In this document: positions 5,366 through 58,140 of the stretch, piece after piece
Layout of the letters: the number at the start of each line of letters is the position of its first letter
How positions within the stretch are numbered: the first letter of the stretch is position 1
Notes under the pieces: model-generated
What the model was told of the DNA's origin: nothing
The model's database searches: none
Seen by the model: only the letters and a program-made list of their open reading frames with translations
NCBI GenBank assembly: GCA_030698625.1
Contig: JAUYMS010000012.1
Span: 29,872-93,871 of the forward strand
DNA: 64,000 nucleotides
Reading direction: 5' to 3'
Source of the DNA: Candidatus Omnitrophota bacterium
GTDB lineage: Bacteria > Omnitrophota > Omnitrophia > Omnitrophales > Aquincolibacteriaceae
Made by a program: the position numbers and the translations under genes

Positions 5366-6292
5366 ATGGGTGCTTTTCTGGCGGATTGGTTTCTCGGCGA
5401 TCCCGTATACCGCTATCATCCTATCCGTCTCATGGGCAGGGCGATTACGTGGGGCGAGAACCGCATTCGCGGGGTCCTCTCACATACGTTTCTAGAGGGT
5501 GCGGTTTTGGCGCTGTTGTTTCCGGTTATTGTTTTTGGCATATCCGCACTAATCGTTACGCTCTCTTACCGGATTCACTTCGGCCTAGGGTTTTTGGTTT
5601 CTCTCTATGGCATCTATACTGCGCTTTCCGTCAAAGACCTTCGCGATGAAGGACTTCGTGTCTACCGTGCCTGTTGCGAAGAAGACCTGGGTTTGGCGCG
5701 TCGCGAGGTCTCGAGAATCGTGGGGCGCGATACGGCAGATATGCAGCTTCCGGATGTGCAGCGCGCCGCCGTCGAAACGATCGCCGAGAGTACCGTTGAC
5801 GGCGTGATTGCCCCATTGTTTTATGCGGTCCTTGGAGGAGCGCCGCTGGCCTTAACTTACAAAGCTGTGAATACATTGGATTCAATAATCGGAAATCGTA
5901 ACGAAAAATATCACGAGTTCGGCCGTTTTGCAGCCAAGCAGGACGAAGTCTGGAATTGGGTCCCGTCGAGGTTCTCCTACGTTTTGATTGCCTTGGCAGC
6001 GTTGCTGAGTGGTTGCCGAGGAGCGTGTGCCTTAAAAGTAGGTTGGAGCCATGTTTGTAAAATTCGTTCGACAAGCAGCAATGTGAGCGAATCCGCGTAC
6101 GCGGGTGCACTCGGTCTACAACTGGGTGGGCCAAGCCGCTATGGCGGACAAATCAGGCACAAACCGCTTCTGGGAATCGCTGATCGAGATGTGGCATGCG
6201 CGGATATCCTAAGGAGTCTGCGTCTCATGCGGTCTACAGCTTGGGTATCATTGATTTTATTTCTTTTTTTAAGATATACTATGTCCTTATGA
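5366..6292 (+). CDS. cbiB: adenosylcobinamide-phosphate synthase CbiB (alternative in-frame starts at 5285 or 5342)
   Basis: FLADWFLGDPVYRYHPIRLMGRAI and VDGVIAPLFYAVLGG motifs in a membrane protein. I chose the ATG at 5366 to avoid overlap with cobD. Confidence 0.8.
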   Translation: MGAFLADWFLGDPVYRYHPIRLMGRAITWGENRIRGVLSHTFLEGAVLALLFPVIVFGISALIVTLSYRIHFGLGFLVSLYGIYTALSVKDLRDEGLRVYRACCEEDLGLARREVSRIVGRDTADMQLPDVQRAAVETIAESTVDGVIAPLFYAVLGGAPLALTYKAVNTLDSIIGNRNEKYHEFGRFAAKQDEVWNWVPSRFSYVLIALAALLSGCRGACALKVGWSHVCKIRSTSSNVSESAYAGALGLQLGGPSRYGGQIRHKPLLGIADRDVACADILRSLRLMRSTAWVSLILFLFLRYTMSL

Positions 6293-6600
6293 AGCGCGCC
6301 TATATTGTCTTATCCAATAGTTCGGCCAAGCGGGGATTGGAAGCGCGGCGCGTCCTTTTGGAACACGCCGATGCCGGCGGTGATACCTGTATCGAAGTGG
6401 TTTCAAAAGGTGCTGATACTGCCTATTTTGAGAAGGCTGTGCGGCGCTGTATCAAGCGGGGATTTGAGAGCATGTTTATTTTTTCACTCGGTAAGTTAAC
6501 GCGGACACAAGAATGCGGAGTTTATCCGGAGACTGTGCGATTGATTCGCCGTGAACGCCCCGATATCGATTTTCATTTTGCCGGCCGGCTACGAATGTAA
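6289..6600 (+). CDS. CbiX/SirB-like small protein, possibly degenerate (catalytic His positions not conserved)
   Basis: ATGA overlap with the cbiB stop. About 104 aa with the alternating beta-alpha pattern of short CbiX, but SNS sits where HGS is expected and there is no G-H motif. Homology is weak. Confidence 0.3.
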   Translation: MKRAYIVLSNSSAKRGLEARRVLLEHADAGGDTCIEVVSKGADTAYFEKAVRRCIKRGFESMFIFSLGKLTRTQECGVYPETVRLIRRERPDIDFHFAGRLRM

Positions 6601-7647: not shown

Positions 7648-9306
7648 ATGGGGAAAGGACTTTTTTGCATGCTTCTCGGTAACAAAAAAACACAGAGAGA
7701 GGAACAGAACTGGTGTATTGTTCTGAGCCCGCTCCGCAATGAGATCGACAAGAAGAGAGTTTCCCGAAAGATATCGGGTGTCTTTTCGCTGTCTGCCGAA
7801 GAGGCTACCGATCTTGTTTCCAATACCCCGATCATTCTTCTCGATAATTTAACGCGTTCGGTTGCGGTAGAAATCAAAGAATATTTTCGGTCCGCCGGCG
7901 CGGAAATGATTCTTACCAACGACGTTTTTCTCAAGAGAAAGTGCTACCGAACAGTATGGCCGGAACCTCCGAATTTATCATTTTTGAATCAAAAATCCCA
8001 AGAAACGTCAGGCCTGCAAAGGCCGCCTGTCGAAGCCGAAGAAGTTCTAAACCCCGAAGATGCTTTGGCTCAAATTCGCACGCTTTCCGCCGAGGCGCCT
8101 CGGAAGCCAGAAGCAACGCCGATTCCCCAGTCGTATGGAATGCGTGATTCCGAGCGGCAAGATCTTCTTGAGGAAGCCGATAGGTGGCGTCGCGAGTGCA
8201 CTGCTCGCCGGGTAGAGATCGAGAAGTTGCAGCATCAACTTGAGCAGGCGACAAAACAGTTATCGATCCAGCAGTTGCCGTCACTCGACCAGACGGCCAC
8301 GCTTAAGGAGAGAGAAAAGGAAATCGCTGACATGCGGGGTCTTCTGACCAGCTCGCAGGAGAAATATGATGCACTGCGTGAGGAATATCGCGAGACCCGC
8401 GCCTTGCTGGAAGAGAAGGTGGCTGGTGCTAACGAGGATAAAGATCGTGAATCACGGACAACTCGGGATTTGATGCGGAAGTGGGAATCCTCACGGGATA
8501 TGGTTCGCGATGTCGAGGTCAAGATCGCCGAGAGCGAAAGTGCGAGGGTTGAGTTGATGAACTCTCTTGCCGAACTGCAAGGCAGAATCGATCAGGCGGA
8601 AGAAAAGATTAATATTCTGGAGCGAGCCAAAGAAAGCTTGGAGCGGGCGCTGAATGAGCAGACTGAGCTTGCTTCCTCATGGCGGGAGCGGTTCGAAGGA
8701 CTAAACGGAAAATTTGATTCTCTCAATGCCGAGCAGAACGAGGAGAGACTCAGGCGCGAAGATGAGCTGGTGAAGATCCGCGAGATCGAGCTAGAAAAAG
8801 ATGATCTCTCAAATAAGCTTGCCGACAGTCAACGGCGTTACGACGATGTTGAGATGAAGTTGCGGGAGTCCCAGAATACGGTTGATCATCTTTTGCGCGA
8901 AAAAGAGGAACAGGAGAGTCTTGCTCAGGAGCAGTGGAGCAATCGCCAGGAGCGTGAGCGTGAGCTGGAGGAGACCAGGCGCCAGCTGCGTACGATCAAT
9001 TTCCAGGCGGAGCAGCGTGAAGCCGCTAATAAGCGGACCTACATGGCCAATCGCATTGCCGAAAGGGAAATGCAATTAAAGAAATTGGTGCGCGAGCAAG
9101 AAAGAATCGAGTCCGAGATCAGAGATCGTGAGCAGTCTATGCGTGAGACCCTCTCGGAGCAGGAGCGCTTGGAAAAGGAAATTGTGGAGTGTAAACAGAC
9201 CCAGCGTCATCTCGTGGAGCAGGTCAAGAAGGAAAAACTTCCTCGCTTGCGCGTTACTAAAACAGAAAATGGTGCGAATATGTCTGAGCAGACGGAGGGT
9301 GTATGA
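7648..9306 (+). CDS. long coiled-coil protein with N-terminal ribosomal L7/L12 C-terminal-domain-like module
   Basis: Residues ~45-90 (LSAEEATDLVSNTPIILLDNLTRSVAVEIKEYFRSAGAEMIL) resemble the L7/L12 CTD (EAKDLVEgaPkavkegvskeEAeeiKkkLeeAGAeVel). The remaining ~450 aa is E/R/K/L/Q-rich heptad-like sequence. Confidence 0.55.
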   Translation: MGKGLFCMLLGNKKTQREEQNWCIVLSPLRNEIDKKRVSRKISGVFSLSAEEATDLVSNTPIILLDNLTRSVAVEIKEYFRSAGAEMILTNDVFLKRKCYRTVWPEPPNLSFLNQKSQETSGLQRPPVEAEEVLNPEDALAQIRTLSAEAPRKPEATPIPQSYGMRDSERQDLLEEADRWRRECTARRVEIEKLQHQLEQATKQLSIQQLPSLDQTATLKEREKEIADMRGLLTSSQEKYDALREEYRETRALLEEKVAGANEDKDRESRTTRDLMRKWESSRDMVRDVEVKIAESESARVELMNSLAELQGRIDQAEEKINILERAKESLERALNEQTELASSWRERFEGLNGKFDSLNAEQNEERLRREDELVKIREIELEKDDLSNKLADSQRRYDDVEMKLRESQNTVDHLLREKEEQESLAQEQWSNRQERERELEETRRQLRTINFQAEQREAANKRTYMANRIAEREMQLKKLVREQERIESEIRDREQSMRETLSEQERLEKEIVECKQTQRHLVEQVKKEKLPRLRVTKTENGANMSEQTEGV

Positions 9307-20149: not shown

Positions 20150-20635
20150 GTGGCTCATAGATATAATCAATTATTCCCCTATTTAGTGACCCTGGGTCTT
20201 ACGATTTTTATGATTCTGGTTTCCACGGCAGGGGAGGCCGCCATCGACGATGATATTGGAGCTCCAGCTCAGGAAGTCTACGAGGCGGCGCTGTTTGTCC
20301 TGAACGATGTTGGAGTTTCCACGCAGGACGAAAATGACTTCTATATCGAAAGCGATTGGTCCATAGATACAATAGAGGAAGTTCGAAAACTTCCGTTTAA
20401 TTTCGCATTGGATAAAAAACTCGATCGGCGAGCCCGTTACCATATCCGGCTTGTGCGGTGGCCAACTTACACCGAGGTTCATATTGAGACCAAGTTTCAA
20501 GACCGGCGCCACGGCGCTGGGCGTATGGTGCGGTGGAAGACGCGTAAGGCGACTTTTAACGACCATCAACTCGAAAAGAACCTTTTCGAAGATATTCTCC
20601 TGCGGCTCGAAGCAAACCGCATCCGAAAAGGTTAA
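20150..20635 (+). CDS. hypothetical secreted/lipoprotein-like protein
   Basis: N-terminal hydrophobic helix. I recognise no domain. Confidence 0.4.
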   Translation: MAHRYNQLFPYLVTLGLTIFMILVSTAGEAAIDDDIGAPAQEVYEAALFVLNDVGVSTQDENDFYIESDWSIDTIEEVRKLPFNFALDKKLDRRARYHIRLVRWPTYTEVHIETKFQDRRHGAGRMVRWKTRKATFNDHQLEKNLFEDILLRLEANRIRKG

Positions 20636-20755: not shown

Positions 20756-21856
20756 TTGCAGGTTATAGCAATTGCCAATCAGAAGGGTGGGTGCGGCAAG
20801 ACGACGAGCAGCATTAATCTTGCTGCCTGCTTAGCTCACCTGAAAAAGAAAGTACTTTTGGTGGATCTTGATCCCCAGGGGCATGCCACTTGTGGGCTAG
20901 GGATTCGCGCAGAGGAACTTCCTTATAGTCTTTATGACCTTTTGTCGCCTAAAGACGAACAGAAGCCGGGCGTCTCAGAAGTGCTCATTGAGATTAATCC
21001 ACACTTTTGCCTGCTGCCTTCCCACACAGTTTTGAGTGCCGTAGAAGAGGAATTGGCCTTTCACGGAGGACGTCAAAAGCGCCTGAAATCGTTGTTGTTC
21101 CGCGTTGCTCAGGAGATCGGCGACTTTGACCATATCATAATCGATTGTCCTCCCAATCTTGGCGTATTGACCTATAACGCGCTGGATGCGGCTGACGAAG
21201 TTATCATACCGCTCGAGCCTTCCTTTTTTTCACTGCACGGTCTTGCCAAGATTACGGAAACGATTCAGTGGGTAAACCAAGAAAGAAAGCGGGCTATTGA
21301 ATTGCACGCGCTTATGACCATCTACGATGCGCGCACTTGTTTCGCACGAGAGGTCTACGAAGAGGTTGAAAGATACTTTTCCGAGAGGCTCTTTCGTGCC
21401 GTGATTCACGAAAGCGTGCTGCTGAAAGAGGCGGCAAGTGCGGGCCAGAGCATTGTGGATTACGAGCCGGACTCTATTCCGTTCTATGATTATCTTAGTG
21501 TGGCCACCGAGCTTATGGAGCGCCAATGGAGTCGCATTCTCCCGGAGCAGGAAACGCGCTGGCTCGATAAGATTCAAAATAGGTACGGCCCCCGGTCCGT
21601 CTGCGGGGGAGTCCTTTTTCAATGCTATAACAAATACGCGCGCTTTGTGGAAATTGCCGGAGACTTCAACAATTGGATACCCGAAGCCCTAGTGCAAAGA
21701 AACGACAATGGCCTTTGGCAGAAGGTGATCACGGCGCATGGGGGCGCCTGCCGGTATAAATTTATAGTGGACGGCGAGTGGCAAGTGGACCCTCATCAAC
21801 TGGAGCAACGCGAAAACGCCTACGGCAGTTTCGATTCTTATTTGGAAGTAGGCTGA
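20756..21856 (+). CDS. ParA/MinD-family ATPase fused to C-terminal CBM48/AMPK-beta glycogen-binding-like domain (TTG start)
   Basis: Deviant Walker A NQKGGCGKTTSSINLA, VDLDPQG and IIIDCPP motifs. The C-terminal ~90 aa (ARFVEIAGDFNNWIP...GLWQKV...CRYKFIVDGEWQVDP) matches the AMPK-beta/CBM48 pattern. Confidence 0.75.
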   Translation: MQVIAIANQKGGCGKTTSSINLAACLAHLKKKVLLVDLDPQGHATCGLGIRAEELPYSLYDLLSPKDEQKPGVSEVLIEINPHFCLLPSHTVLSAVEEELAFHGGRQKRLKSLLFRVAQEIGDFDHIIIDCPPNLGVLTYNALDAADEVIIPLEPSFFSLHGLAKITETIQWVNQERKRAIELHALMTIYDARTCFAREVYEEVERYFSERLFRAVIHESVLLKEAASAGQSIVDYEPDSIPFYDYLSVATELMERQWSRILPEQETRWLDKIQNRYGPRSVCGGVLFQCYNKYARFVEIAGDFNNWIPEALVQRNDNGLWQKVITAHGGACRYKFIVDGEWQVDPHQLEQRENAYGSFDSYLEVG

Positions 21857-21858
21857 AC

Positions 21859-22683
21859 GTGAACCCCGATCGGAAACTCAAACGAGGCTTAAAAGATATT
21901 TCACCGGCTTTTTCTGAGCCAACGAAGGCCATCCCCTCTATAGTTAGGCGAGTGACGCTGGATGGGCCACCCGGTGTCACCGTGTTGAGTATTTTTAGCC
22001 CGGATTATCCCGCGGATTCCTTTTTGTTGAATACGCTGTTGGCGTCTCGCTTGGCTAATGCTCAGAGGCCGGGACACATTATATCCATCGATGCGGAGTG
22101 GGACGCCCGCCAGGCTGGGAAGGAAAAACGCATCTTTTCTCAAGAGCTGCTGAATCTTCACCTGAGACGGTCGCGTTTCTCATGGTCTCAGTTCTCTGAG
22201 ATCTGCCGCCGGCGTGTTCCTGAGACAGCCACCGTCACGGTTCCGGATCAACTCATTTTTCTGGATGTTCACTATGGCTGTGTTCCCTTTGATGAGGAAA
22301 TCGCGCCGATTCTGGACAAGTGGATATTTTTTCTCCAACCGCGAGCCGACAGTCTGAGTGAAGCCTATAAAATGATGAAGGCCACATTCGCCCATAATCC
22401 GCATCTCGAGTATTTTCTTGTGTTTGAAGGGGACTCGAAGCGCAAGCCACTCGGCCCTTATCTCTTTGAGCGCTTCTCGTCAATTTTATCCGAGCGTCTT
22501 GGCGTCAATTTAGTCTGGCTGGGATATCTGGATCCGTCCGGTGCGCCGAATGCTTCTCCTGGAGAGATCACTCTAGAACATCTTTTTTTAGGCGAAAGAC
22601 GCGCTATGGATAATCCGGCAAAAGTGGCATTGGCCGGGCTGACTGAGTTATCACTCGGTCGGTACATGTCTACAGCATCATGA
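21859..22683 (+). CDS. degenerate ParA/MinD-like protein lacking Walker A (GTG start; alternative ATG at 21778 overlaps the upstream gene)
   Basis: Collinear with the ParA fold (VTVLSIFSP..., IISIDAEWD, FLDVHYG, FFLQPRADSLSEAYKMMK) but carries no KGG-x-x-K[ST] P-loop. Confidence 0.4.
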   Translation: MNPDRKLKRGLKDISPAFSEPTKAIPSIVRRVTLDGPPGVTVLSIFSPDYPADSFLLNTLLASRLANAQRPGHIISIDAEWDARQAGKEKRIFSQELLNLHLRRSRFSWSQFSEICRRRVPETATVTVPDQLIFLDVHYGCVPFDEEIAPILDKWIFFLQPRADSLSEAYKMMKATFAHNPHLEYFLVFEGDSKRKPLGPYLFERFSSILSERLGVNLVWLGYLDPSGAPNASPGEITLEHLFLGERRAMDNPAKVALAGLTELSLGRYMSTAS

Positions 22684-23291
22684 AGCTCTACTTCCTGCCT
22701 CCCTCCGACACCGTTTCAGATTCAGTTGTCACAGCCCTGAGAGAAGCGGTCCTCAGCCGACAGCCCGAAGCCGGTGAAGATATCGGTATGCCTATGATGG
22801 GGGCCTACAGGCAGCAGATCGTTCTCAGAATGAGCGATGGCGTTTTTTGGGGGCGCGTATTTCGTGATCGAGTTTCAGGCGCAGCTCTTGTTAAGCTTGA
22901 AAAAGAGTATCAACAGCTCAAATCTATTCTGCGCGATAATCTCAGTTACACTGTTTTCTATTCCTCAGCGGTGCCGGAATCACCGGCTAATCCGGAAGCT
23001 TGGCCTGAAGATTTGCTCGAAGACCTTGGCCGACCCGGATTTCACTGCTTTGAATATAGAATCGTGTCTTGTGAGGGAAGCCGCGCATTGGTTTTGCAGA
23101 CTAGCTCCGTTACGCGCGGACTTGGGATTCAACCGCCGGATACCAAGGAAAAGCGTGTTTCCTTCACCCCGCCGCCCCAGAACGCCGAATCGTGCGATGA
23201 ATTGGGGCATCGACTTTCTCCGGCAGAGATAGCCGAATTCGTAGAACTTGGCCTGGAAATTAGAAAACTTACAGGCACCCGCCCTGATTAA
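22680..23291 (+). CDS. hypothetical protein
   Basis: A 203-aa ORF whose start overlaps the upstream stop (ATGA). I recognise no domain with confidence. Confidence 0.4.
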   Translation: MKLYFLPPSDTVSDSVVTALREAVLSRQPEAGEDIGMPMMGAYRQQIVLRMSDGVFWGRVFRDRVSGAALVKLEKEYQQLKSILRDNLSYTVFYSSAVPESPANPEAWPEDLLEDLGRPGFHCFEYRIVSCEGSRALVLQTSSVTRGLGIQPPDTKEKRVSFTPPPQNAESCDELGHRLSPAEIAEFVELGLEIRKLTGTRPD

Positions 23292-23339: not shown

Positions 23340-24053
23340 ATGACAGAGATTAAAGCCAATATTGAAATCCTCAAGCAAGCCCAAGAGTTGGATTGGACTG
23401 TATACCATTCCGGACAGCGTCTTATAGAGATCCCTCAGGAGAGGGATAGACTCAAACAGACATTGGAGTCTGAAAAAAGCCATCTCAAGCAACTTCAAGA
23501 CCATCTCACGACCCTTCAACTCAAGCAAAAGGAGAAGGAGCTGGAGCTCGGTGAGAAGGAGGCGCATATTAAGAAGTTAGACGGGCAGCTAGCGCAGGTT
23601 AAAACTAACAAGGAATATAGCGCTATGCAGCAAGAAGTAGCGTCGCTTAAGGCTGATAACTCCGTCCTCGAGGAAGAGATTATTCGAATAATGGATGAAG
23701 TGGAAGCCGCGCAGGAAGAGGTCAAGAAGGAGAGTGACCGCCTCAAGGAGCGCGAAAAGCATTATCAAAGCCAGGAAGTCGAGCTGGCCAGTAAAGAAAA
23801 GAAGCTTAACGAGGAGATTGAAAACCTCCTAAAAGGCAGGGAGGAGATCCTCCAGAGGGTTGATCCCGAGATCCGCGGTAAGTACGAGATCGTGGTGAAG
23901 AAGAAGGAGGGGGTTGCCTTGGCAAAGGTCCTCAATGAAACCTGTTCTGCCTGCCAGATGCGCCTTAGACCCCAGTTGCTTAATGAGATTATTCTCGCCG
24001 CGGACCTCGTTGCCTGCGAAAACTGCTATCGTTTTCTCTACATAGATAAGTAA
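23340..24053 (+). CDS. zinc-ribbon domain coiled-coil protein (C4-type, PF02591-like)
   Basis: About 190 aa of coiled coil followed by CSACQMRL...CENC (a CxxC...CxxC zinc ribbon). Confidence 0.6.
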   Translation: MTEIKANIEILKQAQELDWTVYHSGQRLIEIPQERDRLKQTLESEKSHLKQLQDHLTTLQLKQKEKELELGEKEAHIKKLDGQLAQVKTNKEYSAMQQEVASLKADNSVLEEEIIRIMDEVEAAQEEVKKESDRLKEREKHYQSQEVELASKEKKLNEEIENLLKGREEILQRVDPEIRGKYEIVVKKKEGVALAKVLNETCSACQMRLRPQLLNEIILAADLVACENCYRFLYIDK

Positions 24054-24173: not shown

Positions 24174-24202
24174 TTGACACGAAGGTCAATTCAACCTATA
24201 CT
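24174..24202 (+). promoter_or_regulatory. near-consensus sigma70 promoter of mraZ (TTGACA, 17-nt spacer, TATACT)
   Basis: TTGACA at 24174-24179, 17-nt spacer, TATACT at 24197-24202. Confidence 0.55.
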
Positions 24203-24217: not shown

Positions 24218-24245
24218 GTGGTAGGAAGTGGTAGGTTGTGGGGAA
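24218..24245 (+). promoter_or_regulatory. three direct GTGG(T/G)(A/G)G repeats at 10-bp spacing; candidate MraZ operator boxes
   Basis: GTGGTAGGAA, GTGGTAGGTT, GTGGGGAAAC between the promoter and the mraZ ATG. E. coli MraZ binds a series of GTGGG direct repeats in its own promoter. Confidence 0.5.
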
Positions 24246-24266
24246 ACCCGAGGAGCCATTCCAGTT

Positions 24267-24704
24267 ATGTTTTACGGCGAATATGAACATACACTCGATA
24301 AGAAAGACCGCATCATCATCCCAGCCAAGTTTCGCGAGATCTTCAAGGAAAATTATGTGGAGCGATTCTATGTCACCCGGGGACTTGATCGCTGTCTGTT
24401 CGTCTTTACCGAAGAGACCTGGAAAAATCAGGAAAAAAAGTTTCGTGAAATGCCCTTTACCCGGCCGGAAGCACGCCGCTTTAACCGGCTTTACTTCTCT
24501 GGTGCAGTCGACGTTGTTTGCGACAAACAGGGGAGGATTCTCATCCCGTCTTATCTCAAGTCATACGCAACGATCAATGAACATGTTGTCGTTATCGGAG
24601 TTTCAGACCGCATCGAAATCTGGGCGAAAGAAAAGTGGAAAGAGTTCTATGACGAAAATCAGGGCAGCTTCGAAGACTTGGCAGAAAAACTAATTACGGA
24701 ATAA
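24267..24704 (+). CDS. mraZ: transcriptional regulator MraZ
   Basis: MFYGEYEHTLDKKDRIIIPAKFRE and the second repeat DKQGRILIP (two DXXXR motifs). Confidence 0.9.
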   Translation: MFYGEYEHTLDKKDRIIIPAKFREIFKENYVERFYVTRGLDRCLFVFTEETWKNQEKKFREMPFTRPEARRFNRLYFSGAVDVVCDKQGRILIPSYLKSYATINEHVVVIGVSDRIEIWAKEKWKEFYDENQGSFEDLAEKLITE

Positions 24705-24724
24705 AACTAAAAGGGGGTTCACCT

Positions 24725-25063
24725 GTGGCTTATCGATCGAGATCTAAGATGGGCGTTGATGTACTGCGATTCGAAGGAGATCTGAGTGCTGTTGAGATGG
24801 TAAAGATTAAAAGCCGTTTGTCTCGCTTGTTGAAGAAGAATCACAAGAAGCTTCTGCTTGATCTCAAGCGCGCGCGCCGCGTTGAATTAGCAGGATTGGG
24901 TATTCTCGTTGACCGTCTCATGAAGGTGCGTCAACAGAAGGGTGATATCAAGTTGTGCAACATCCGACCTGAAGTGGAACAGACGCTACGCATGATCGGG
25001 GTCAGTGGTCTTATGGAGTCGTTTTGTACGGAAGAAGAGGCTATACGGAGTTTTGCTGCATAA
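24725..25063 (+). CDS. STAS-domain protein (anti-sigma-factor antagonist-like; phosphorylatable Ser replaced by Ala)
   Basis: LRFEGDL...LLLDL...ELAGLGILV...IRPEVEQTLRMIGVSGL fits the SpoIIAA/STAS fold. It has AGLG where DSSGLG is expected. RBS AAGGGGG. Confidence 0.55.
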   Translation: MAYRSRSKMGVDVLRFEGDLSAVEMVKIKSRLSRLLKKNHKKLLLDLKRARRVELAGLGILVDRLMKVRQQKGDIKLCNIRPEVEQTLRMIGVSGLMESFCTEEEAIRSFAA

Positions 25064-25973
25064 ACCGGTTCTTATAAAGGAAACCCTGGATTGTTTAGCG
25101 ATCCCTCGGGATGCCGTTGCTGTTGACGGAACTCTGGGTGACGGGGGCCACGCAGAAGAGATGCTTAAGCGATTAGGCCCTGGGGGAAGACTGATCGCGA
25201 TCGACCAAGATCCACAGGCGATCCTCAGATGCCGGGAGCGTTTCAAAGATTATCGCAATATTTCATTTCATCATGAGAATTTTAGGAATATGCCGGCTGT
25301 TCTGGATTCATTGAATATTGTTGCGGTGGATGCTGTGCTGTTGGACATAGGCTTTTCATCCGATCAACTCGAAGACGCATCCCGCGGCTTTAGTTTTGCA
25401 CGAAACGGCCCTCTGGATATGCGAATGAATCCGGATCTTACATTGCAGGCATTCGATATCGTTAACGGGTACAGACAACAGGAGCTCGAAAAGGTGTTTT
25501 ATGAGTTCGGCGAACAGCGATGGTCACGGAGATTTGCTCGTCAGATCGTTGAAGAGCGACATAAGAAGCCCATCCTTACAACCACAGAGCTTGCTGAAGT
25601 CCTTGAGCGTTCCGTGCCCGGAAGATTTTCCCATCCAAAAAGCAAACGGCCTTCGTGGTCTCGCCATCATCCCGCAACGCGCGCTTTTCAAGCATTGCGA
25701 ATTGCCGTCAATGATGAGCTCGGCGCCCTTGAAGAAGGGCTGGATAGAATGTGGCCGTTCCTAAGATCCGGCGGACGACTTGCAACCATTACGTTTCATT
25801 CCCTGGAAGATCGCATTGTGAAGAACCGATTTCGTAATTGGGCTCGGTCCGGGGAAGCGATCCTTGTGCACAAAAAGCCCGTCACCCCCGGCCGCGATGA
25901 AACAGTCGATAACCCGAGGGCACGGAGTGCTAAATTGAGGGTTGTGGAGAGGACCGATGAGCGGATTTCTTAA
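25005..25973 (+). CDS. rsmH: 16S rRNA (cytosine1402-N4)-methyltransferase (GTG start at 25005, or TTG at 25053)
   Basis: HKPVLIKE, VDGTLGDGGHAEEML and LLDIGFSS motifs. Confidence 0.9.
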   Translation: MVLWSRFVRKKRLYGVLLHKPVLIKETLDCLAIPRDAVAVDGTLGDGGHAEEMLKRLGPGGRLIAIDQDPQAILRCRERFKDYRNISFHHENFRNMPAVLDSLNIVAVDAVLLDIGFSSDQLEDASRGFSFARNGPLDMRMNPDLTLQAFDIVNGYRQQELEKVFYEFGEQRWSRRFARQIVEERHKKPILTTTELAEVLERSVPGRFSHPKSKRPSWSRHHPATRAFQALRIAVNDELGALEEGLDRMWPFLRSGGRLATITFHSLEDRIVKNRFRNWARSGEAILVHKKPVTPGRDETVDNPRARSAKLRVVERTDERIS

Positions 25974-26340
25974 AATTATAGGATGGATCATACCGTTAAC
26001 GGTAGGGCTTTTGCTCTATGTTCACGGACAGGTCTCGCTCTTTCAAGTCTCGTATTCTCTGGACTTGCAGCGGCATATAGTTGCCGAAAAGAGGGAAGAA
26101 TACCGCCGCCTTAAGTTTGAGGTGGATCAACTTAAAGCACCCAGGGTGCTTGAACGCCGCATTAAGGACGAAGGCTTAGAACTTGCATTGCCCGACCAAA
26201 TCCGAGTCCTTCGCGTCAGTCCCCCTGTGAATATCCCATTACCGCCCGTCGTGCGGATCCAACCGAAAGCCTTTTCAGACGGCCTGACGAATTTCCTTGG
26301 TAAATGGGTGAGGGTGGCTCAGGCGAAGCCGGACGCCTGA
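25942..26340 (+). CDS. ftsL: cell division protein FtsL-like
   Basis: Small bitopic protein (TM followed by a coiled coil) sitting between rsmH and ftsI. Confidence 0.55.
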   Translation: MWRGPMSGFLKIIGWIIPLTVGLLLYVHGQVSLFQVSYSLDLQRHIVAEKREEYRRLKFEVDQLKAPRVLERRIKDEGLELALPDQIRVLRVSPPVNIPLPPVVRIQPKAFSDGLTNFLGKWVRVAQAKPDA

Positions 26341-28121
26341 TGCCCGCATCGGTTTCACTGCGACGGTTCTGGTTTCTTAATCTTGTCATCGGCATTGTGT
26401 TCTGTGTCCTAACCTATCAGTTTGTTCAACTCACCGTATTACGCCAGCCCGCTCTCAAGGCCGTTGCCCAGAGGCAGCACACCTTAACCATAGACCTTCC
26501 GCCCTTTCGGGGTGCGATTCTCGACGCCCGAGGAAAGGAGCTTGCAACGAATCTCAAAGTGCCCTCCGTATATGCCGTGCCCCGTCTTCTGACCGAGGAA
26601 AACAGGAAAACTGTAGCGAGAGAAGTGAGCAACTTATTGGGAGTAGACTACGATTTTGCCCTCGAACGTCTGTCGCGCGATAAGTCATTCGTCTGGATCA
26701 GACGGCGAGTAACGCATGAGGAGGCGAAAAAGATAAGGGAATTGAAGCTGCCCTCGTTGGGAATTATTGAGGACTATCAGCGTTTTTATCCGCAGGGTGA
26801 CTTGCTGGCACAAGTCCTGGGTTTTACAAATATCGATAATGAAGGACTTGAAGGTCTCGAACTCAAATACGATCACGCCCTGCACGGCCGACCGGGAAAG
26901 CGGTATACCAAGCGAGACGCCTTGGGGCGCGAGATCAAGGCTTTTGAGATCAAGACCATTCCGGCGGTTCATGGGCACAAAGTGGTTTTGACCATTGATC
27001 AATACCTGCAGTACTTAACAGAAACGGCACTCGAAAAAGCCTATCGCGAGTGGAATGCGAAAGGCGCCATGGCTGTCCTCATGGACCCTGCAAGCGGTCG
27101 AATTCTTGCCATTGCCAATCGTCCTGGTTTTGATCTGAATCATATTGCTTCAGCGAATGCCGACAGTCGGCGAAATCGCGCAATCACCGATACTTATGAA
27201 CCGGGTTCCGTCTTCAAGATCGTTACCGCCAGCGCTGCCCTTAATGAAGGTGTTGCGAATACTGAGACAAATTTCTTCTGTGAAAATGGTGAGTATCGTT
27301 ATGGATCACGTACCTTGCATGATGTGCACCCGTACGGTGATCTCAGTTTTGCCGATGTCATAGTAAAATCAAGCAACATTGGCGCCGTGAAAATTGCCGC
27401 ACTCATGAAGCCCGACGTGTTTCAATCCTATATCGACGGTTATGGATTTGGTAAGAAAACGCAGATCGATCTCCCGGGTGAGGTTTCCGGTTTTACAAGG
27501 CCGCCGGCGCAGTGGTCAAAGACGACACCGTACAATATTCCCATGGGGCATGAGATTATGGTTACGGCGATTCAGATGACGGCCGCCATGGCGACTCTCG
27601 CTAACGGCGGGGACCGCGTCAAACCCTATATCGTCTCGCACATAGAAGATCAGTCCGGCTTTGTCATGCGGCGCAACCTGCCTCAGGTAGTCAAGCACGT
27701 AGTTCGTCCCGAGGTCGCCAAGCAAATGCGGGAAATGCTCACGAGAGTTGTCGAAGAAGGAACCGGTAAGCGTGCCCGCATCGAGGGGACTCAAGTCGGA
27801 GGAAAGACGGGAACGGCGCAGAAGGTATTGCCCGGAGGAAAGGGATATTCTCATGACAGCTTTATTTCATCTTTCGTAGGATTTGCCCCGAGTGAAAATC
27901 CGCAGCTCGCAATGGCAGTTGTTCTTGATGACCCTCACCCGAGTTACTATGGGGGAACGGTTGCCGCGCCGGTTTTTAAGGAAGTAATGGAGAGAGGACT
28001 TCTGTATTTGGGTTATATCCCCGAAGAGGCCCGGCGCCTGGAGCCTTCCAACCGGAAACCAGTGCCTCAAGCGAATCCGCCCATGTTTGTACCGGCGCAA
28101 GCTGCGGGTACAAGGATTTAG
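26304..28121 (+). CDS. ftsI: peptidoglycan D,D-transpeptidase FtsI / PBP3-like class B penicillin-binding protein
   Basis: PBP dimerisation domain plus a transpeptidase domain with SVFK, SSN and KTGT motifs. Confidence 0.85.
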   Translation: MGEGGSGEAGRLMPASVSLRRFWFLNLVIGIVFCVLTYQFVQLTVLRQPALKAVAQRQHTLTIDLPPFRGAILDARGKELATNLKVPSVYAVPRLLTEENRKTVAREVSNLLGVDYDFALERLSRDKSFVWIRRRVTHEEAKKIRELKLPSLGIIEDYQRFYPQGDLLAQVLGFTNIDNEGLEGLELKYDHALHGRPGKRYTKRDALGREIKAFEIKTIPAVHGHKVVLTIDQYLQYLTETALEKAYREWNAKGAMAVLMDPASGRILAIANRPGFDLNHIASANADSRRNRAITDTYEPGSVFKIVTASAALNEGVANTETNFFCENGEYRYGSRTLHDVHPYGDLSFADVIVKSSNIGAVKIAALMKPDVFQSYIDGYGFGKKTQIDLPGEVSGFTRPPAQWSKTTPYNIPMGHEIMVTAIQMTAAMATLANGGDRVKPYIVSHIEDQSGFVMRRNLPQVVKHVVRPEVAKQMREMLTRVVEEGTGKRARIEGTQVGGKTGTAQKVLPGGKGYSHDSFISSFVGFAPSENPQLAMAVVLDDPHPSYYGGTVAAPVFKEVMERGLLYLGYIPEEARRLEPSNRKPVPQANPPMFVPAQAAGTRI

Positions 28122-28989
28122 CTTCCGCCAGTCCCGCGGGGCAGGTGACATTGACCTCAATCAGTCGGTCCATCAAGACGTCAATGCCGACAAAATGAAG
28201 CCCCTGATTTTTTAGATAAGGGGCCATTTCTTCAACGAGCTTTTTTTCGAGACCCGTAAGCGTTGCCGGACAGTAACTCGCGCCCGCGCTCAAGTTGCCC
28301 CGGAAATCACCCTTCCCGAATCGCTTTTCATACGCAAGGAGGACTTCGCCATCAAGGATCAGAATCCGTTTGTCACCGTGAACCCCATCGCCTGTTAAAT
28401 AACGCTGCGCCATAATCGTCTGCGTCCCGTTCTGTGTCGCCTGTTTGAGCAATTCGCTTTTGTGGTTGTCGGCGCGGTGCAGGAGAAAAACTCCCTTCCC
28501 TCCCTTTTCATCAAGCGGCTTTACGACCACATCCGACTGCAGACGATCTTGAAAATCAAGTATCGTGGTTTCGGAACGGGAGACTACGGTTTCCGGCATC
28601 CAGCGGGAAAAATGGAGCGCCGACAATTTCTCGTTGTTGTTACGGATTCCGGTCGGGTGGTTCAGCACCGGCACCAGGCGGGCAACGTGGTCCAAGAGGT
28701 GCGTGAGGTACAGGTAATTGGCGTCGAACGGGGGCTCTTTGCGGATCAGGATAAGCTGAAAGTCACGAGCCTTTAGCCTCTTTCTGTCGGTAGCGTGATA
28801 TCGGAAGTCTGCATCCGGGCAGATGCGGCTCGCGTCAGCCACCACATCGGGCGTCTCATACCACACCTCATGGGTATCCGCTGCCCAGGTTGAGTGACCC
28901 CGGGCGGCCAATTCCCGCAAAAGGGTTAGCGAGGTATCCCATTTCGCATCAAGGACTTCTAGTGGATCTAAGATAAATAGACAATTCAT
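27976..28989 (-). CDS. gshB: glutathione synthetase (ATP-grasp)
   Basis: The N-terminus LFILDPLEVLDAKWDTSLTLLRELAARGH resembles GshB. ATP-grasp region. Its 3' end overlaps ftsI head-on. Confidence 0.7.
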   Translation of the reverse strand: MNCLFILDPLEVLDAKWDTSLTLLRELAARGHSTWAADTHEVWYETPDVVADASRICPDADFRYHATDRKRLKARDFQLILIRKEPPFDANYLYLTHLLDHVARLVPVLNHPTGIRNNNEKLSALHFSRWMPETVVSRSETTILDFQDRLQSDVVVKPLDEKGGKGVFLLHRADNHKSELLKQATQNGTQTIMAQRYLTGDGVHGDKRILILDGEVLLAYEKRFGKGDFRGNLSAGASYCPATLTGLEKKLVEEMAPYLKNQGLHFVGIDVLMDRLIEVNVTCPAGLAEAKSLYPQLAPVQTWADSLEALVSGWKAPGAGPLRGYNPNTEVLSPLLP

Positions 28990-29113
28990 GATTTCTCCGT
29001 TTCCAATACCCTAGACTAGCGTAAAAAGCCGATATATCAAGGAAATTAGGAGGTATTGAGTAATTTCCCAATTGGCAGTATTCTACGGCTTATGAGTGCA
29101 ACCGAGGAAAGAC

Positions 29114-30478
29114 ATGAGTAAATTGATGGGGCAGGATAAAGGGCAAGAACGGATTACTGAGGAGGATTTGGCCGGGTATTTCCAGCGGTTTGCCAAAACG
29201 CGTGAGTTTATGCGGGTGGGAGTTGAATGCGAGTTCTTCGGTGTTCGGGCCAGGGACGGCAAGGCGATCCCCTTTGATGGACCCTCAGGTATTGAGGCCA
29301 TACTGAAGTGGCTTGCCCAGAACTTTGGCTATGAAGAGGTTCTTGAGGAGAGCAGGGTGATTGCCCTTAAACGGGAGGACATTTCTGTGACCTTGGAGCC
29401 CGGCGGTCAGGTGGAGTTAAGCGGTGCGCCAGTCTGGAACGTGTTCGAAATTGAAGCGCAGATCCAAGAGTTTGTCCACGAACTGCGTGAGTCGCGCTGC
29501 CGCTTTCCTGAACTGGAGTGGCTGGCCGTAGGGATACAACCCTTCAGTCGGGCGGATGACATAGCCTGGGTTCCCAAAAAAAGATACGAGATAATGCGTG
29601 AGCATTTCCGGGAACGCGGGCCGATGTCTCACCACATGATGAAAACTACCGCGACTAATCAGGTCAATTTCGATTATCTGAGCGAAGAAAACGCCATGGC
29701 AAACCTTCGTGTTGTCTACGGGATTACGTCGATTGTTTCGGCGCTCTTTGCCAATTCCGGGTTTTCTGAAGGGCGCCCAAACGGTTATGCGACAAAACGA
29801 TTGGAAATCTGGAATCACACCGATCCCGATCGAACGGGGCTTCTATTGCGATTCCTTGAACCCGGGGCGACTTTTCAGGACTATATTGAATATCTTCTAA
29901 AGATGCCGATGATCTTTTTGGTGCGTGACCGAAGATGGATTCCCTCTGATGGGCGCAGTTTTCGTACGTTTTTGGCAGAGGGATATCAGGGGTTCTCGGC
30001 GACGCTGGCGGACTTCGAGCTTCACTTAAGCACGGCTTTCCCCGAAGCGCGGCTCAAGCAATATCTGGAAATTCGCGGCGTGGACTGCCAGAGCCCTCAT
30101 CTGATGCCGGCCGTGGCGGCGTTTTGGAAAGGGATTCTCTATGACCCCGAGACAAGCGATAAGGCCTGGAAACTCGTGGCGGATGTCCCGCTGAAAGAGC
30201 GGATCCGGGTTCATCAGAATATCCCGCGCGAGGGCTTAAAAGGGCGCATTGGCGTCCGAACTGTGTTTGAAGTTGCCCGTGAGTTGGTGGATCTCGCCTG
30301 TGCCAGCTTGGCAAAGCAGAGGACTCAGACCGAAACCCGCGACGAGTGTCGCTTTCTGGACCGCATTAGGAAGACCATTATTGCCGAAGGCAAGTCACCC
30401 GCTGAGACGATGCTGGAAAAGTGGTACGCGGATCTGGGGGAGGACCCTGCCAGATTGCTGGAGTATCTGAGAATCTAG
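29114..30478 (+). CDS. gshA: glutamate--cysteine ligase, GCS2/plant-type family (alternative start at 29096)
   Basis: RVGVECEFFGV... carboxylate-amine ligase pattern. Divergent from gshB. RBS GAGGAAAG. Confidence 0.7.
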   Translation: MSKLMGQDKGQERITEEDLAGYFQRFAKTREFMRVGVECEFFGVRARDGKAIPFDGPSGIEAILKWLAQNFGYEEVLEESRVIALKREDISVTLEPGGQVELSGAPVWNVFEIEAQIQEFVHELRESRCRFPELEWLAVGIQPFSRADDIAWVPKKRYEIMREHFRERGPMSHHMMKTTATNQVNFDYLSEENAMANLRVVYGITSIVSALFANSGFSEGRPNGYATKRLEIWNHTDPDRTGLLLRFLEPGATFQDYIEYLLKMPMIFLVRDRRWIPSDGRSFRTFLAEGYQGFSATLADFELHLSTAFPEARLKQYLEIRGVDCQSPHLMPAVAAFWKGILYDPETSDKAWKLVADVPLKERIRVHQNIPREGLKGRIGVRTVFEVARELVDLACASLAKQRTQTETRDECRFLDRIRKTIIAEGKSPAETMLEKWYADLGEDPARLLEYLRI

Positions 30479-38356: not shown

Positions 38357-41300
38357 ATGATGAAACACAAAAAAAGGGCGATTAGTATACTGACGCTGAT
38401 GTTCTTCATGAGCACTCAGGCCGTTGGCGCTATGCCGGCCGGTGGCATTGAGTACGCTCCGCAGGGTGAAACTCCGTCCTTCTTACAAATTGATATTCCC
38501 GACAACCTGGCTCGCGTCGAAGAAGTTTACGAGGCGCCTCCCAAGGTAGATCCGAACCTTATCCTTCACATTCAGAACGCTCACGGCAATTATGAAGCCC
38601 AAGTTAAGATCAAGGGGCTTATGGACTACCTCTATAAGAGCTACGGATTCAAGTTGTTCTTCGTCGAAGGTGCGGTCGAGAAGATGAATGCCGACTACCT
38701 CAGGTTCTACTCCGATCCGGAACGCAATCAGCAATTTGCCGATCTTCTTGCGCGCGACGGAGAACTGACCGGCGCGGAACTGTTTCTGTTGGAGGCCCCG
38801 GCAGAAGTTGAAGCGATCGGTATCGAACAGGCAGAGCTCTACAAAGCAAACTACGAGGCCTTCAAAACCGTGTATAAGGCCGAATCCGACTTTGAAAATT
38901 ATCTGAGAGATCTCGACAAGCGGCTGATGAGCTTCTCGTCAAAGGCCCTTCCGAGTGAATTGCGAAGCATTCTCGTCGAGTGGAAAAAGTTCGAAGAAGG
39001 AAGGCGGCAGTTCCTTCCTTACGTCAAGCGCCTGGCCGAACATGCCAAGCGGTACCTGGATATGGATTTACGCAGTCTTTTTTCGCAGATTGAATGGCCG
39101 CAGATTTCCCGTTTGCTTGTTTTGCAGTCTATGGAAACGGACCTCGATATCGAGGCCGGACGAAAAGAACGTGAAGGCGTCGTAAGATTCCTCAGGGAGC
39201 ACCAAGTCTCCGAAAAGCTGATAACGGCCGTGCAGGAGCTCGAAGAGAAGAAGATTCAGATGAGCCGTCTGAATGTTCGCGACGAACGTCTCGAGGACCT
39301 GCCGAGGTATCTCCTGGAACGCCTTGTAAGCGAAGCCGGGCCCAAAGGATTTAGGTTTGACGATTTTCCCGCTTTCAGTCTTTATGCCGGATACCTGGTT
39401 TTGAAAAGCGAACTGGATTCCAAACAGCTATTTCGCGAAATTGACTTCCTCTTCGACCGTATTATGAATAAGTTGGCCGTCACACCCGAAGAAAAAGCGC
39501 TCCTCGAGCTTTTTCACGACGCCGAATCGCTCCGCAAACTTTTTCACCTGGAGCTTTCCCGGCCCGACTGGCAGACCGCCGTTCGCAGGCGCAACATGAT
39601 CGAACCTTCGGTGATGGCAGAACGGGCCGCAGCCATGGATCCGGAATCCGAAGCGATTGTGGTGAAGCCCTCACTTGCGCAAGTATTCGATACGGCCTTT
39701 ACCTTCTATGACCTGGCCCGCCAGCGCGAGGCCGTTTTCCATTACACGATGAAGCAGGAAATGTTCAAGCGGGGTTTGGATAAGACCAGCGTCCTCACCG
39801 GCGGCTTTCACACCGAAGGCATGCTCGATATGTTCCGCGAAGACGAAACCAATTACGGAGTTTTGATGCCGCGCATACGCGGCAAGGTGGACCGTGAAAA
39901 TTACGTGCACACCGTCATGGGCGACAGGCCCGGCACCTTTGAGGCGTCCACCATGGAAGTTCGTTCGGGTGTTGTCAGTCCCGCCAACTTCGTCGCATCC
40001 GGCGGTGATGTCGCCCTACTCACACAGCGCAATGCGCTTAAGGTTGCAGCCGTAGACAAAGACAATGCCACTAATGCGCCAGACGGCAATCAATTTGAGG
40101 TCGTCAGAAGGACGGATGCGCTGAATAATACACCCTTTGCGCTCGATTATGGCGTTGCCTTTCTTTATGATCCCGTTCAGCAGATTGTTTACCTGTTTGT
40201 TGCAGGGAAACCGTTAAGAGTTGACGGGCAGTATCTTGCCGTCGCAACGGCACTGGTTACCAACCGGGTAAATCGCAGTGAGCTTCGTTCCCTCGATGAT
40301 CGTTTGCTGCGCATACCGCAGGCGCCGTCACGGAAGCTACTCGACGACCTCGCCGGGATCCTTGGCGAACAGGAAGTTGCCAGAAACAAACGCCGCCGTG
40401 AGCAACAGCCGCTCGGTACGCGCCCGGACAGCCGAACCGGTCTCGTTCTCCCTGACGGCGGGGTCACTGCACCTGCCTCCGGTGTGGCTCGTGTAGATAA
40501 CGGCCTACTGGTTTCAGAAACGGCCGGACAGCTTGTCGGTGTTGATGGTCAAGTGATTTCGTCGGCATCAAGACGCGTAGTTGCCGTCTCCGGTTTACAG
40601 ACAATACCCGCACAGACAATTGCTGCGGATCAACCGCCCACGCCGCCGGCAGGAATCCCGGGGCTCGATTTTCTACTTGGAAGGGATGGCCTAGATATAC
40701 AAACCGCCGTGAGGGGAGTCGTCGGCGCGAGTGCCTTACAACAAGTTCCTTTCTTAGGGGACGTTGCCGGCTTTAGAGGCGTTGGGGCCAATCTCCTGCG
40801 ACAGTTGGTTGAGGATCAACGCGAACCGCCCTCGGCCGATAGAGTGCGTGCGATCGTCAGCACGAGCGGCACGGCTGGTATTGTATCTCGCAATGGTTCG
40901 GTCGCGCAGTTTCAAACTGATCTCACAGCCATTGTTCTGGCCGTCAGCCAGAACCAGGATCCGAAGCTTGTCACGGCCCGCAATGCATTGCGCGCTCTCG
41001 CACCGGGAACACCGTCGCATACAACGAATGTCGTGGATGCTTTAGAGCTTACCCGATCTGAGCTGCGTACCGCTAATGTCTTTCTCCTATCATTGGACCA
41101 GCCTTCGGCCGTTACTTATTTTGCTCTGTTACCGGCACAGGCGACCCGAGAGCAGATTACCGCGGCGCAGGATGGCTTTGACACGATTCTCAGTAAATTC
41201 GCTGCGACGACCCTGGGGAGGGCACCCGGGCTTAGCGTGAAAGTTGTGCCCGCGAGCCGCCGCGCCTTGCAAAAGGCCGCTATACAGGCTACGGCTTCGG

Positions 41301-56891: not shown

Positions 56892-58140
56892 CCCCTACCT
56901 TTCTCTGGGCGCCGCCACTTCGGCACATCAAGTCGAAGGCAATAATGACCGCAATGACTGGTGGGCTTGGGAAGCAGCGGGCAAGGTCAGGACCCCTTCC
57001 CGAGAGGCCTGTGATCACTGGTCTCGCATTCACGAAGACGTAGCCCTTATCGCCTCGCTTGGCCACACGGCCTATCGCTTTTCCCTGGAGTGGAGCCGCC
57101 TAGAACCCAATGAGAATGAGTGGGACGAAGCGGCTTTTTCTCACTACGCAAAGCTCCTCACTGAATTACACCTGAGACAAATTGAGCCCGTAGTGACCCT
57201 GCATCACTTTACGAATCCTCAGTGGTTTGCGCGAAGGGGAGGGTGGCTTGCTGAGGATGCCCCGCTCATTTTTGCGCGTTATGTCCGCGAGGTGAGCCGA
57301 CGCGTCGGCGGAAAGGTGCGTTTCTGGATTACCATCAACGAGCCGATGGTCTACGTGTATTATGGCTATGTGATAGGTTCCTGGCCGCCGGGAGAACGGT
57401 CCTTTGATGCGGCAACACGAGTTCTGCGGAATCTTTTGATCGCGCATGTGCGTGCCTATCAGGAATTGCATTCGATTTGTGACGGGCTGACAGGTGCCCC
57501 TGTCTCAGTCTCTATCGCGAAGCATCTTACCCATTTCGCACCCTGCCGGAAGAACAGTCTGAGTGACCGGTTTGCGGTGTTCCTACGAAATCAGTTTTTT
57601 AATGCGATGTGTTTTTCCGCGCTATCAACGGGCTTTCTCTTCTTTCCGGGTGTTTTCTGCGAAAGGTTGCCGGGGGAGCGAACCTTGGATTTTTTAGGGG
57701 TGAATTATTACCGCAGAGATTTCATCCGTTTTGGAGGATTGCGGGATCAGGGCCCCCTCGGCGAGATCTGTGAAGATGCCCATCATGCCGGGCAAATAGC
57801 CGAGCGGAATTCCATGGGGTGGGAGATATACCCCGAAGGTTTGTATCGGGTCCTCGCGGCTTTACGCCGCTTTTCACTGCCGGTGCTTATCTGTGAAAAC
57901 GGAGTTGCCACCGACGATGACACTCAGCGTGTCCGTTTTATTGAGAGCCACGTGCAGTCGATCGAGAGGGTTCGGTCCGAGGGGCTTGATGTGAGCGGCT
58001 ATTTGTACTGGTCGCTGTTCGATAACTTTGAGTGGGCAGAAGGTTACAAGCCCCGGTTCGGCATCGTCGAAGTCGGGGCAGCCGATAAAACAAGAAAAGT
58101 CAGGCCCAGCGCTCATGTTCTAAGCCGGGTTTGCCGATAG
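56855..58140 (+). pseudogene. GH1 family beta-glucosidase, apparently frameshifted near the N-terminus (single-base G indel around 56905-56912); the long intact portion is the ORF 57193-58140 frame
   Basis: The frame starting at the ATG at 56855 reads ...PTFLW. The next frame reads GAATSAHQVEGNNDRNDWWAWE... Fused, they give FLWGAATSAHQVEG, the GH1 N-terminal signature. Downstream are TINEP (acid/base) and ICENG (nucleophile). The long frame has no start codon between the stop at 56851 and 57193. Confidence 0.55.

Follow-up and report, generated by a model that had tools for sequence, protein, structure and literature searches.

ATPases of the ParA/MinD family are a general bacterial solution for the positioning of large cargo. 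The McdA/McdB system, which positions carboxysomes, and the PomXYZ, ParC/ParP and FlhG systems are members of this family that position organelles (PMC11407121, PMC10241942). A 2024 review of the ParA/MinD family lists membrane-targeting helices and basic DNA-binding patches as the determinants of matrix binding and mentions neither carbohydrate nor glycogen. Our searches of the literature turned up no report of a carbohydrate-binding module on a ParA/MinD ATPase or of glycogen positioning by ParA, and no mechanism for the placing and sharing of bacterial glycogen granules. Here we analyse a stretch of 64,000 nucleotides from a Candidatus Omnitrophota bacterium (contig JAUYMS010000012.1), in the following called the window, which encodes a Soj-type ParA ATPase with a C-terminal glycogen-binding module of the CBM48/AMPK-beta type, followed by a partner protein of 274 aa and a third protein of 203 aa. 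The fusion of ParA and CBM48 is real, old and widespread. We suggest that these genes form a positioning or partition module of the ParA type in which the ATPase itself is equipped with a domain for binding alpha-glucan (glycogen); we infer all functional steps of this proposal and give it an even chance of being correct. The ATPase engine and the peptide-activator logic of such a module would be familiar, whereas the novelty would lie in the appended domain, in the probable cargo and in a partner that is a pseudo-ATPase.

The fusion protein

The fusion gene is composed of the following parts:

20756..21856, + strand: ParA-CBM48 fusion gene, 366 aa, TTG start (open reading frame list; Pfam AAA_31, CbiA, AMPK1_CBM and CBM_48)
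20756..21520, + strand: Soj-type ParA ATPase domain, residues 1-255 (phmmer against the PDB, Foldseek)
20783..20806, + strand: deviant Walker A motif KGGCGKTT, residues 10-17, with the signature lysine K10 and a family-specific Cys
21521..21628, + strand: linker between the ATPase and the carbohydrate-binding module (CBM), residues 256-291, with the clade-conserved W258, P263, W269, P279 and G285 (alignment)
21629..21853, + strand: CBM48/AMPK-beta-type glycogen-binding module, residues 292-366 (Pfam, AMPK beta CBM structures)

Residues 1-250 match the Pfam families AAA_31 (E=1.5e-51) and CbiA (E=1.4e-17). A previous sequence-only reading of this DNA had given the coordinates of the gene and the motifs KGGCGKTT, DLDPQG and IIIDCPP, and the list of open reading frames (ORFs) bears out both. 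In its context NQKGGCGKTT the first of these motifs conforms to the deviant Walker A pattern xKGGxGK[ST] with the signature lysine. All counts of residue conservation given here refer to 81 aligned fusions; KGGCGKTT, K10 and K15 included, is identical in all 80 that cover the motif. The conserved aspartates D37, D39 and D130 as well as R193 are also present in the fusion. With phmmer the ATPase domain retrieves the ParA structure 8ray (1.1e-50) and Soj of T. thermophilus (2e-43) from the PDB. An AlphaFold2 model of the fusion has a predicted local distance difference test (pLDDT) score of 80.3, and Foldseek aligns it to Soj/ParA with 39–41% identity, E=1e-25 and a target-normalised template modelling (TM) score of ~0.9 (0.92). 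Judged by sequence and model, the ATPase is closest to chromosomal Soj/ParA (Soj of B. subtilis and T. thermophilus, ParA of M. xanthus), with which it has the deviant Walker A fold and a DNA-binding arginine of the R195 type in common. It differs from these proteins by the C-terminal CBM48 and by the Cys of the Walker A motif, which sits at the position of a Val in Soj/ParA. NCBIfam yields matches to ParA/MinD and to GlgB which are all below threshold, and the two-domain architecture is therefore without any curated family. Between the two domains the model is of low confidence at residues 262–276, and the lengths of the fusion proteins across phyla, from 337 to 469 aa, are consistent with a variable linker.

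For the C-terminal part the sequence-only reading had proposed an AMPK-beta/CBM48 domain, and the check with profile hidden Markov models (HMMs) places it above the curated gathering thresholds of both Pfam families concerned. AMPK1_CBM (PF16561) matches residues 292–365 with E=2.2e-10 and 41.0 bits (cut-off 26.8), CBM_48 (PF02922) scores 31.4 bits (cut-off 22.4), and both matches together span residues 284–365. Among solved structures the C-terminal 91 aa are most similar to the CBMs of AMPK beta-1 and beta-2 (E=1.4e-5), followed by pullulanase and GlgB. In rat AMPK beta-1 the carbohydrate is contacted by W100, K126, W133, L146 and T148, and mutating these residues reduces or abolishes glycogen binding (McBride et al., PMC2642990). 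In the HMMER alignment W307, K335 and W342 of the fusion fall on W100, K126 and W133 with the identical spacing of 26 and 7 residues. The module agrees with CBM48 in the W, K and W of the sugar-binding site. Its location differs, as what it is attached to is a P-loop ATPase and neither a GH13 enzyme nor the scaffold of a kinase. The equivalent positions in the aligned fusions are:

W307, aligned to W100 of AMPK beta-1: 81/81 fusions
K/R335, aligned to K126: 81/81 fusions (31 K, 50 R)
W342, aligned to W133: 81/81 fusions
Aromatic F/Y356, aligned to L146: 59/81 fusions
G357, aligned to G147 in the alignment made in this analysis: 80/81 fusions
N/D360, at the equivalent of N150: 81/81 fusions

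N150 is reported to be a further carbohydrate contact of AMPK beta-1 (Polekhina 2005). The conservation of the sugar-contact residues is the pattern which would be expected of a selected and working alpha-glucan site in many phyla, and it is not a proof of such a site.

The fusion extends far beyond the assembly analysed here. A protein search recovered the architecture in >120 protein clusters, drawn from NCBI, JGI, ENA and Logan assemblies, with 54–63% identity; all of them are ~366 aa long with the same two-domain Pfam signature, and the named ones are Omnitrophota. The GTDB species, each represented by a single genome, were scanned and yielded at least 553 confirmed relatives. The loci of the best 80 of these were fetched, and all 80 match along the full 366 residues. 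They belong to more than 10 phyla, namely Omnitrophota, Planctomycetota (Phycisphaerae, Pirellulales and Tepidisphaerales), Myxococcota, Desulfobacterota, Latescibacterota, Krumholzibacteriota, Eisenbacteria, Gemmatimonadota, Acidobacteriota, Margulisiibacteriota and others. Local HMMs of the ATPase and of the CBM hit one and the same ORF in 83 of 85 loci, including 80/80 from the GTDB scan. An artefact of assembly or gene calling that joined a ParA gene to a CBM48-containing gene would have to have arisen as the same single ORF in all these independent clusters and again in the 80 loci from differing phyla, so that its probability is vanishingly small; nothing was found in its favour. Because of this recurrence the fusion is neither due to chance nor to a chimeric assembly; the chimera, which had been named as a possible pitfall of the sequence-only reading, is excluded. 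A public record identical to the fusion protein is annotated as ‘AAA family ATPase’. The present annotation of the family does not go beyond this term or ‘chromosome partitioning protein’ and probably misleads the interpretation of genomes.

The partner protein

The second gene encodes the putative partner of the fused ATPase:

21859..22683, + strand: partner gene, 274 aa, GTG start; N-terminal peptide, disordered linker and P-loop-less MinD/FlhG-like domain
21874..21912, + strand: N-terminal motif K-L-K-R-G-L-K-D-I-S-P-(L/A)-F, residues 6-18, candidate ParA-binding/activating peptide
21976..22680, + strand: MinD/FlhG-like pseudo-ATPase domain, residues 40-274 (secondary structure, fold matches)

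A gap of 2 nt separates the ATPase gene from the partner gene, and an independent gene call on a public contig gave the same start. Neither Pfam nor NCBIfam has a match to the partner. Its homologues form 27 clusters at 31–45% identity, with 255 representatives in an exhaustive library; from this lower identity it follows that the partner evolves faster than the ATPase. The AlphaFold2 model (pLDDT 82.5) shows alternating beta strands and alpha helices from residue 40 on. Foldseek places FlhG (4rz2, E=1e-7) first, and FleN, plasmid ParA/ParF, Get3, NifH and MinD are also found, all with a probability of 1.0. When the sequence profile of the partner is compared with the PDB, FlhG is again first (E=0.007) over the segment following Walker B, where the partner consensus ipiLDkwillvqPelesLseaYkmiK stands against LKSVDDVFVVTTPEPTAMTDAYAMMK in FlhG. 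These results uphold the view that the downstream protein has a ParA/MinD-type fold without a P-loop. The position of the P-loop is taken by SPDYPADS, which does not conform to Walker A and is degenerate across the clade. The partner of the window has the overall fold in common with FlhG, FleN and MinD and differs from them by SPDYPADS in place of Walker A and by an added N-terminal peptide resembling that of ParB. A few distant partners do fit the pattern GxxxxGK[ST] (GKGVRGKT, GERVKGKS and GDRTPGKS), which makes an active MinD/FlhG-like ATPase the probable ancestor of the partner family.

It had also been supposed that the partner is a degenerate paralogue of the adjoining ParA. Of this supposition the P-loop-less ParA-type fold holds, and the close relationship does not. 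A comparison of profile against profile with hhalign gave E=0.47, the only aligned segment being the collinear one after Walker B, and we reject the partner as a close paralogue of its neighbour in favour of a FlhG/MinD-like origin. A locally iterated profile of the partner does reach two fusion ATPases at 1e-5 to 1e-6, which is in line with distant homology within the superfamily.

The most conserved part of the partner, above the fold itself, is the N-terminal motif KLKRGLKDISPLF, in which L7, K8, R9, L11, S15 and F18 are invariant. In the model residues 13–30 are of very low confidence (pLDDT <50). Its form in other phyla is [KR]LGRGL.D[IV]SH[LF]FLS or a shorter version of this. The ParA-binding motif of M. 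xanthus ParB consists of L11, L15, L18 and I19 with the central R13, which is K in about half of the ParBs, and a ParB peptide with this motif suffices for stimulation of M. xanthus ParA (PMC12462528). The residues L7-x-R9-x-L11-x-x-I14 of the partner have the spacing of L11, R13, L15 and L18 of this ParB, and the partner thus appears to carry an N-terminal motif of the ParB type, L-x-R/K-x-L-x-x-I/L. As the most conserved feature of the partner is this ParB-like motif, we read the partner as a peptide-borne activator of the fused ATPase in the style of ParB, MinE and McdB and not as one half of a heterodimer. The heterodimer had been suggested by the sequence-only reading, and nothing in our analysis supports it. 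The ParB-binding pocket of M. xanthus ParA (L150, L152, L155, L187 and L192) was mapped on the fusion by way of the alignment to 8ray. The first two positions alone stay hydrophobic (L135 and V137), and L192 is replaced by R177, which neither supports nor excludes docking of the peptide.

Systems of the McdA/McdB type are similar to the module in several respects. They also combine a ParA-family ATPase with a small, fast-evolving and lineage-specific partner that bears a conserved basic N-terminal peptide, and their cargo is a cytoplasmic inclusion rather than DNA, as we propose here. The module differs from them in that the candidate cargo-binding domain is on the ATPase, the proposed cargo is a polysaccharide granule and the partner has a pseudo-ATPase fold.

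In place of such a system one could think of an ordinary chromosome-partitioning Soj with an Ig-like beta-sandwich that is past sugar binding and has a protein-interaction or stabilising role. This would agree with the 39–41% identity to Soj/ParA structures, with the ParB-like motif of the partner and with the window, in which no second ParA and no ParB gene is found. However, the adjacent ParB with ParB/Srx CTPase and helix-turn-helix (HTH) domains that characterizes ParABS is not present, as neither the partner nor the third protein has a Pfam or NCBIfam match. The partner is a P-loop-less MinD/FlhG-like protein, whereas ParB is a CTPase with an HTH, and it lacks ParB/Srx, HTH or any other ParB domain. 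In addition, 81/81 fusions, which come from more than 10 phyla, keep the W, K/R and N/D contacts, and this would be difficult to account for if there were no sugar ligand. The family also occurs in Planctomycetota and in Myxococcota, and M. xanthus, a member of the latter, has a canonical ParABS system (PMC12462528). We regard the ordinary Soj as quite unlikely.

The N-terminal motif is also seen on another kind of protein. In a locus from Margulisiibacteriota (L021) the gene after the fusion (5530-6456) starts with IERFSHLFLS but then has a P-loop, GMGKT, that looks intact and is of another kind. This suggests that ATPase scaffolds other than that of the partner can also bear the motif peptide.

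A proposed cycle of glycogen binding

On the reading that we prefer, a ParA-type module with an alpha-glucan-binding ATPase, ATP would drive the fused ATPase into a sandwich dimer. MinD dimers bind the membrane by means of two amphipathic helices, and in parallel to this the ParA-CBM48 dimer would present two CBM48 modules, which could bind with avidity to the multivalent surface of a glycogen particle. In most members of the family the dimer probably also binds the nucleoid via a retained arginine/lysine pair of the Soj type. The N-terminal peptide of the partner would then dock on the dimer and stimulate ATP hydrolysis so that the ATPase is released, and the pseudo-ATPase domain may serve as a dimerising or anchoring scaffold. 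By repeated cycles glycogen granules could be spread along the cell and be shared between the daughters, or the glycogen status could be reported elsewhere. If true, the ParA/MinD family would thereby gain a kind of determinant for matrix or cargo binding that is new to it. The combination of a conserved ParA with an intact-looking glycogen-binding module and a dedicated partner makes the question of granule placement directly testable, and members of the family are widespread across uncultured phyla of environmental importance (Omnitrophota, Planctomycetota, Myxococcota, Desulfobacterota and others). More tentatively, and with some doubt, we extend the proposal to the view that glycogen is a third matrix or cargo of the ParA/MinD family besides nucleoid and membrane, bound bivalently by CBM48 upon ATP-dependent dimerisation and reset by the ParB-like peptide of a pseudo-ATPase partner, in a system that would be ancient, span phyla and take an active part in the ordering and partitioning of polysaccharide storage granules.

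The nucleoid-binding step can be judged from the residues concerned. The conserved arginines by which CcParA binds DNA are R195 and R224, and in HpSoj the equivalents of R221, V223, R224 and K241 contact the DNA (PMC7229837). The R195 equivalent is an arginine in 77/81 fusions, and 67/81 have K or R at the position of R224. Thus, nucleoid binding by members of the family appears plausible.

The reading of the CBM as a glycogen-binding domain gains support from the sugar-contact residues kept in the 81 fusions and from a GH57 gene found in a sister clade of Omnitrophota. In 11 loci of this clade (L019, L025, L035, L036, L038, L040, L046, L048, L060, L068 and L083) the gene order is AlgE-like porin-GH57 (~520 aa)-membrane-anchored beta-sandwich-ParA_CBM-DUF4870-small protein-DUF134. 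We found no other direct connection to alpha-glucan enzymes in the genomes than this GH57 gene, which lies two genes upstream of the fusion. Omnitrophota metagenome-assembled genomes commonly encode glycogen synthesis (PMC8542988). The membrane-anchored protein of the sister clade, encoded ahead of ParA_CBM, has 190 aa; its cytoplasmic N-terminus is conserved (MDKKDIYEHLAKIYLD), and it has a single transmembrane helix as well as a beta-sandwich resembling a CBM.

Several points weigh against a glycogen-positioning module. To begin with its architecture, in ParA systems it is usually the partner and not the ATPase itself that bears the cargo-binding domain. Model confidence in the CBM part of the fusion is only moderate (pLDDT ~41–76). 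In the clade of the window the DNA-contact segment PRNVR of Soj is HESVL, with leucine (L222) at the R224 position, and the R221 equivalent is basic nowhere in the aligned family; nucleoid binding by the fusion of the window itself is therefore uncertain. The likeness of the partner motif to that of ParB is one of spacing and chemistry only, and when a profile of 23 N-terminal partner peptides was run against the PDB, no chain matched at E<=10. Concerning the genomic context, the sequence-only reading had asked for the fusion and its gene pair to be conserved alongside glgA, glgB and glgP. The pair is in fact conserved across many phyla; in 38/78 loci with enough sequence, the gene directly downstream of the fusion belongs to the partner family. 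No glgA, glgB or glgP is found near the module in the window, and the whole 64 kb (~45 annotated ORFs) contain no gene of glycogen metabolism. In this clade the synteny is with mraZ-rsmH-ftsL-ftsI and not with glg genes. The GH57 link is limited to the sister clade, which is without an adjacent partner.

Gene neighbourhood of the module

The module is flanked by the following features:

20150..20635, + strand: upstream gene, 161 aa, with an N-terminal hydrophobic segment; clade-conserved neighbour, probably outside the module
22680..23291, + strand: third gene, 203 aa, overlapping the partner stop by 4 nt; fast-evolving, possibly with a degenerate NucS-like fold
23340..24053, + strand: gene for a CT398/CdsZ-like protein with coiled coil and zinc ribbon; conserved neighbour in this Omnitrophota clade only
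24174..24202, + strand: promoter-like site TTGACA-17-TATACT (11/12 matches), ahead of mraZ

In the clade of the window the gene order is constant, namely proB-proA-nadD-CNNM-CNNM-(~155 aa)-ParA_CBM-partner-(173-223 aa), followed by CT398-like zinc ribbon-mraZ-STAS-rsmH-ftsL-ftsI. Because of the gap of 2 nt, the overlap of 4 nt and the promoter-like site just before mraZ, the module looks like an operon of its own placed beside the division cluster, and the promoter-like site is likely its downstream boundary. Loci in which fusion and partner are linked occur in most clades of the fusion family, and beyond the 38 loci mentioned above several further downstream genes bear the motif when inspected by eye. 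PADLOC gave generic P-loop and coiled-coil matches only for the module and no membership in a defence system.

This neighbourhood could also be taken to mean that the protein is a glycogen-sensing regulator of segregation or division: a Soj/MipZ/PomZ-like ATPase would act on the nucleoid, its CBM48 would be an allosteric sensor as in AMPK, and division or segregation would be coupled to the carbon reserves without any movement of granules. The position of the module in this clade, which is always directly upstream of mraZ-STAS-rsmH-ftsL-ftsI, agrees with such a role, but only in this one clade of the family is the module syntenic with the division cluster, and mraZ has a strong promoter-like site of its own. 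The ATPase domain closest to chromosomal Soj/ParA and the conserved R195-equivalent arginine are what one would expect of the regulator, and the CBM of AMPK is indeed a regulatory sensor and more than a mere tether (PMC2642990). On the other hand, Pfam and NCBIfam reveal no FtsZ-, MinC- or ParB-type domain in the partner or in the third protein. We consider this regulator somewhat unlikely, yet the most probable of the alternatives, followed by the ordinary Soj and at a distance by the artefact. The positioning module with its own glycogen-binding domain is the reading that we retain.

The module seems to include the third gene. Its position is filled by a gene for 173–223 aa in all loci of the clade of the window. 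The third protein has no match in Pfam or NCBIfam; a word-indexed search for homologues returned only the protein itself, and local iteration with phmmer and HMMs returned none, and the alignment was built from positional orthologues alone. The genes following the partner in other phyla form one family, which in the PDB is most similar to the C-terminal nuclease domain of NucS, of the PD-(D/E)xK type (E=0.003), and matches NucS_C of Pfam at 0.0023, below the cut-off, and PDC-S18 of PADLOC at 5e-9. The positions of the catalytic E-x-K are not kept in this family. A comparison of the family of the window with that of the other phyla by hhalign gave a probability of 56% and E=1.2e-4, and both end in the motif L(S/T)xxE(L/I)xx(F/L). 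Possibly the third gene of the window is related to the NucS fold, a weak and indirect link that we give as a lead only.

The CT398/CdsZ family is known from type III secretion in Chlamydia and from the regulation of RpoN. The product of the CT398/CdsZ-like gene, which lies directly upstream of mraZ and encodes a C4 zinc ribbon, matches Zn_ribbon_9 (1.8e-10), CT398_CC (3.4e-9) and, below the cut-off, CdsZ of NCBIfam (5e-23). Whether to count it as a member of the module is uncertain. Between mraZ and rsmH there is a gene for a STAS-domain protein resembling anti-sigma antagonists (24725-25063). All related Omnitrophota loci examined have it in this place, and for a dcw (division and cell wall) cluster such an insertion is unusual. 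The division cluster (24228-28121) ends after mraZ-STAS-rsmH-ftsL-ftsI with no mur or ftsZ genes following, and the same break is present in the related loci. It is followed by a glutathione-synthetase-like gene on the reverse strand and a GCS2 gene (27976-30478).

Elsewhere in the window two long ORFs are without significant Pfam match. The first (38357-41734, 1125 aa) has none even at E<=0.01, and the second (7648-9306, 552 aa) has a weak match only, to the C-terminal domain of ribosomal L12. An ORF of 315 aa (57193-58140), which may be a truncated or split gene, has two stretches of similarity to glycoside hydrolase family 1; the better one covers profile positions 285–447 of 453. Nearly all long ORFs of the window (1-64000) are on the + strand and the cumulative GC skew climbs steadily, which is consistent with a single replication arm and a strong co-orientation of genes. 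Finally, the gene at 1215-3086, downstream of MlaD-like and ABC transporter genes, encodes a CHASE2 sensor domain fused to a SpoIIE/PP2C phosphatase.

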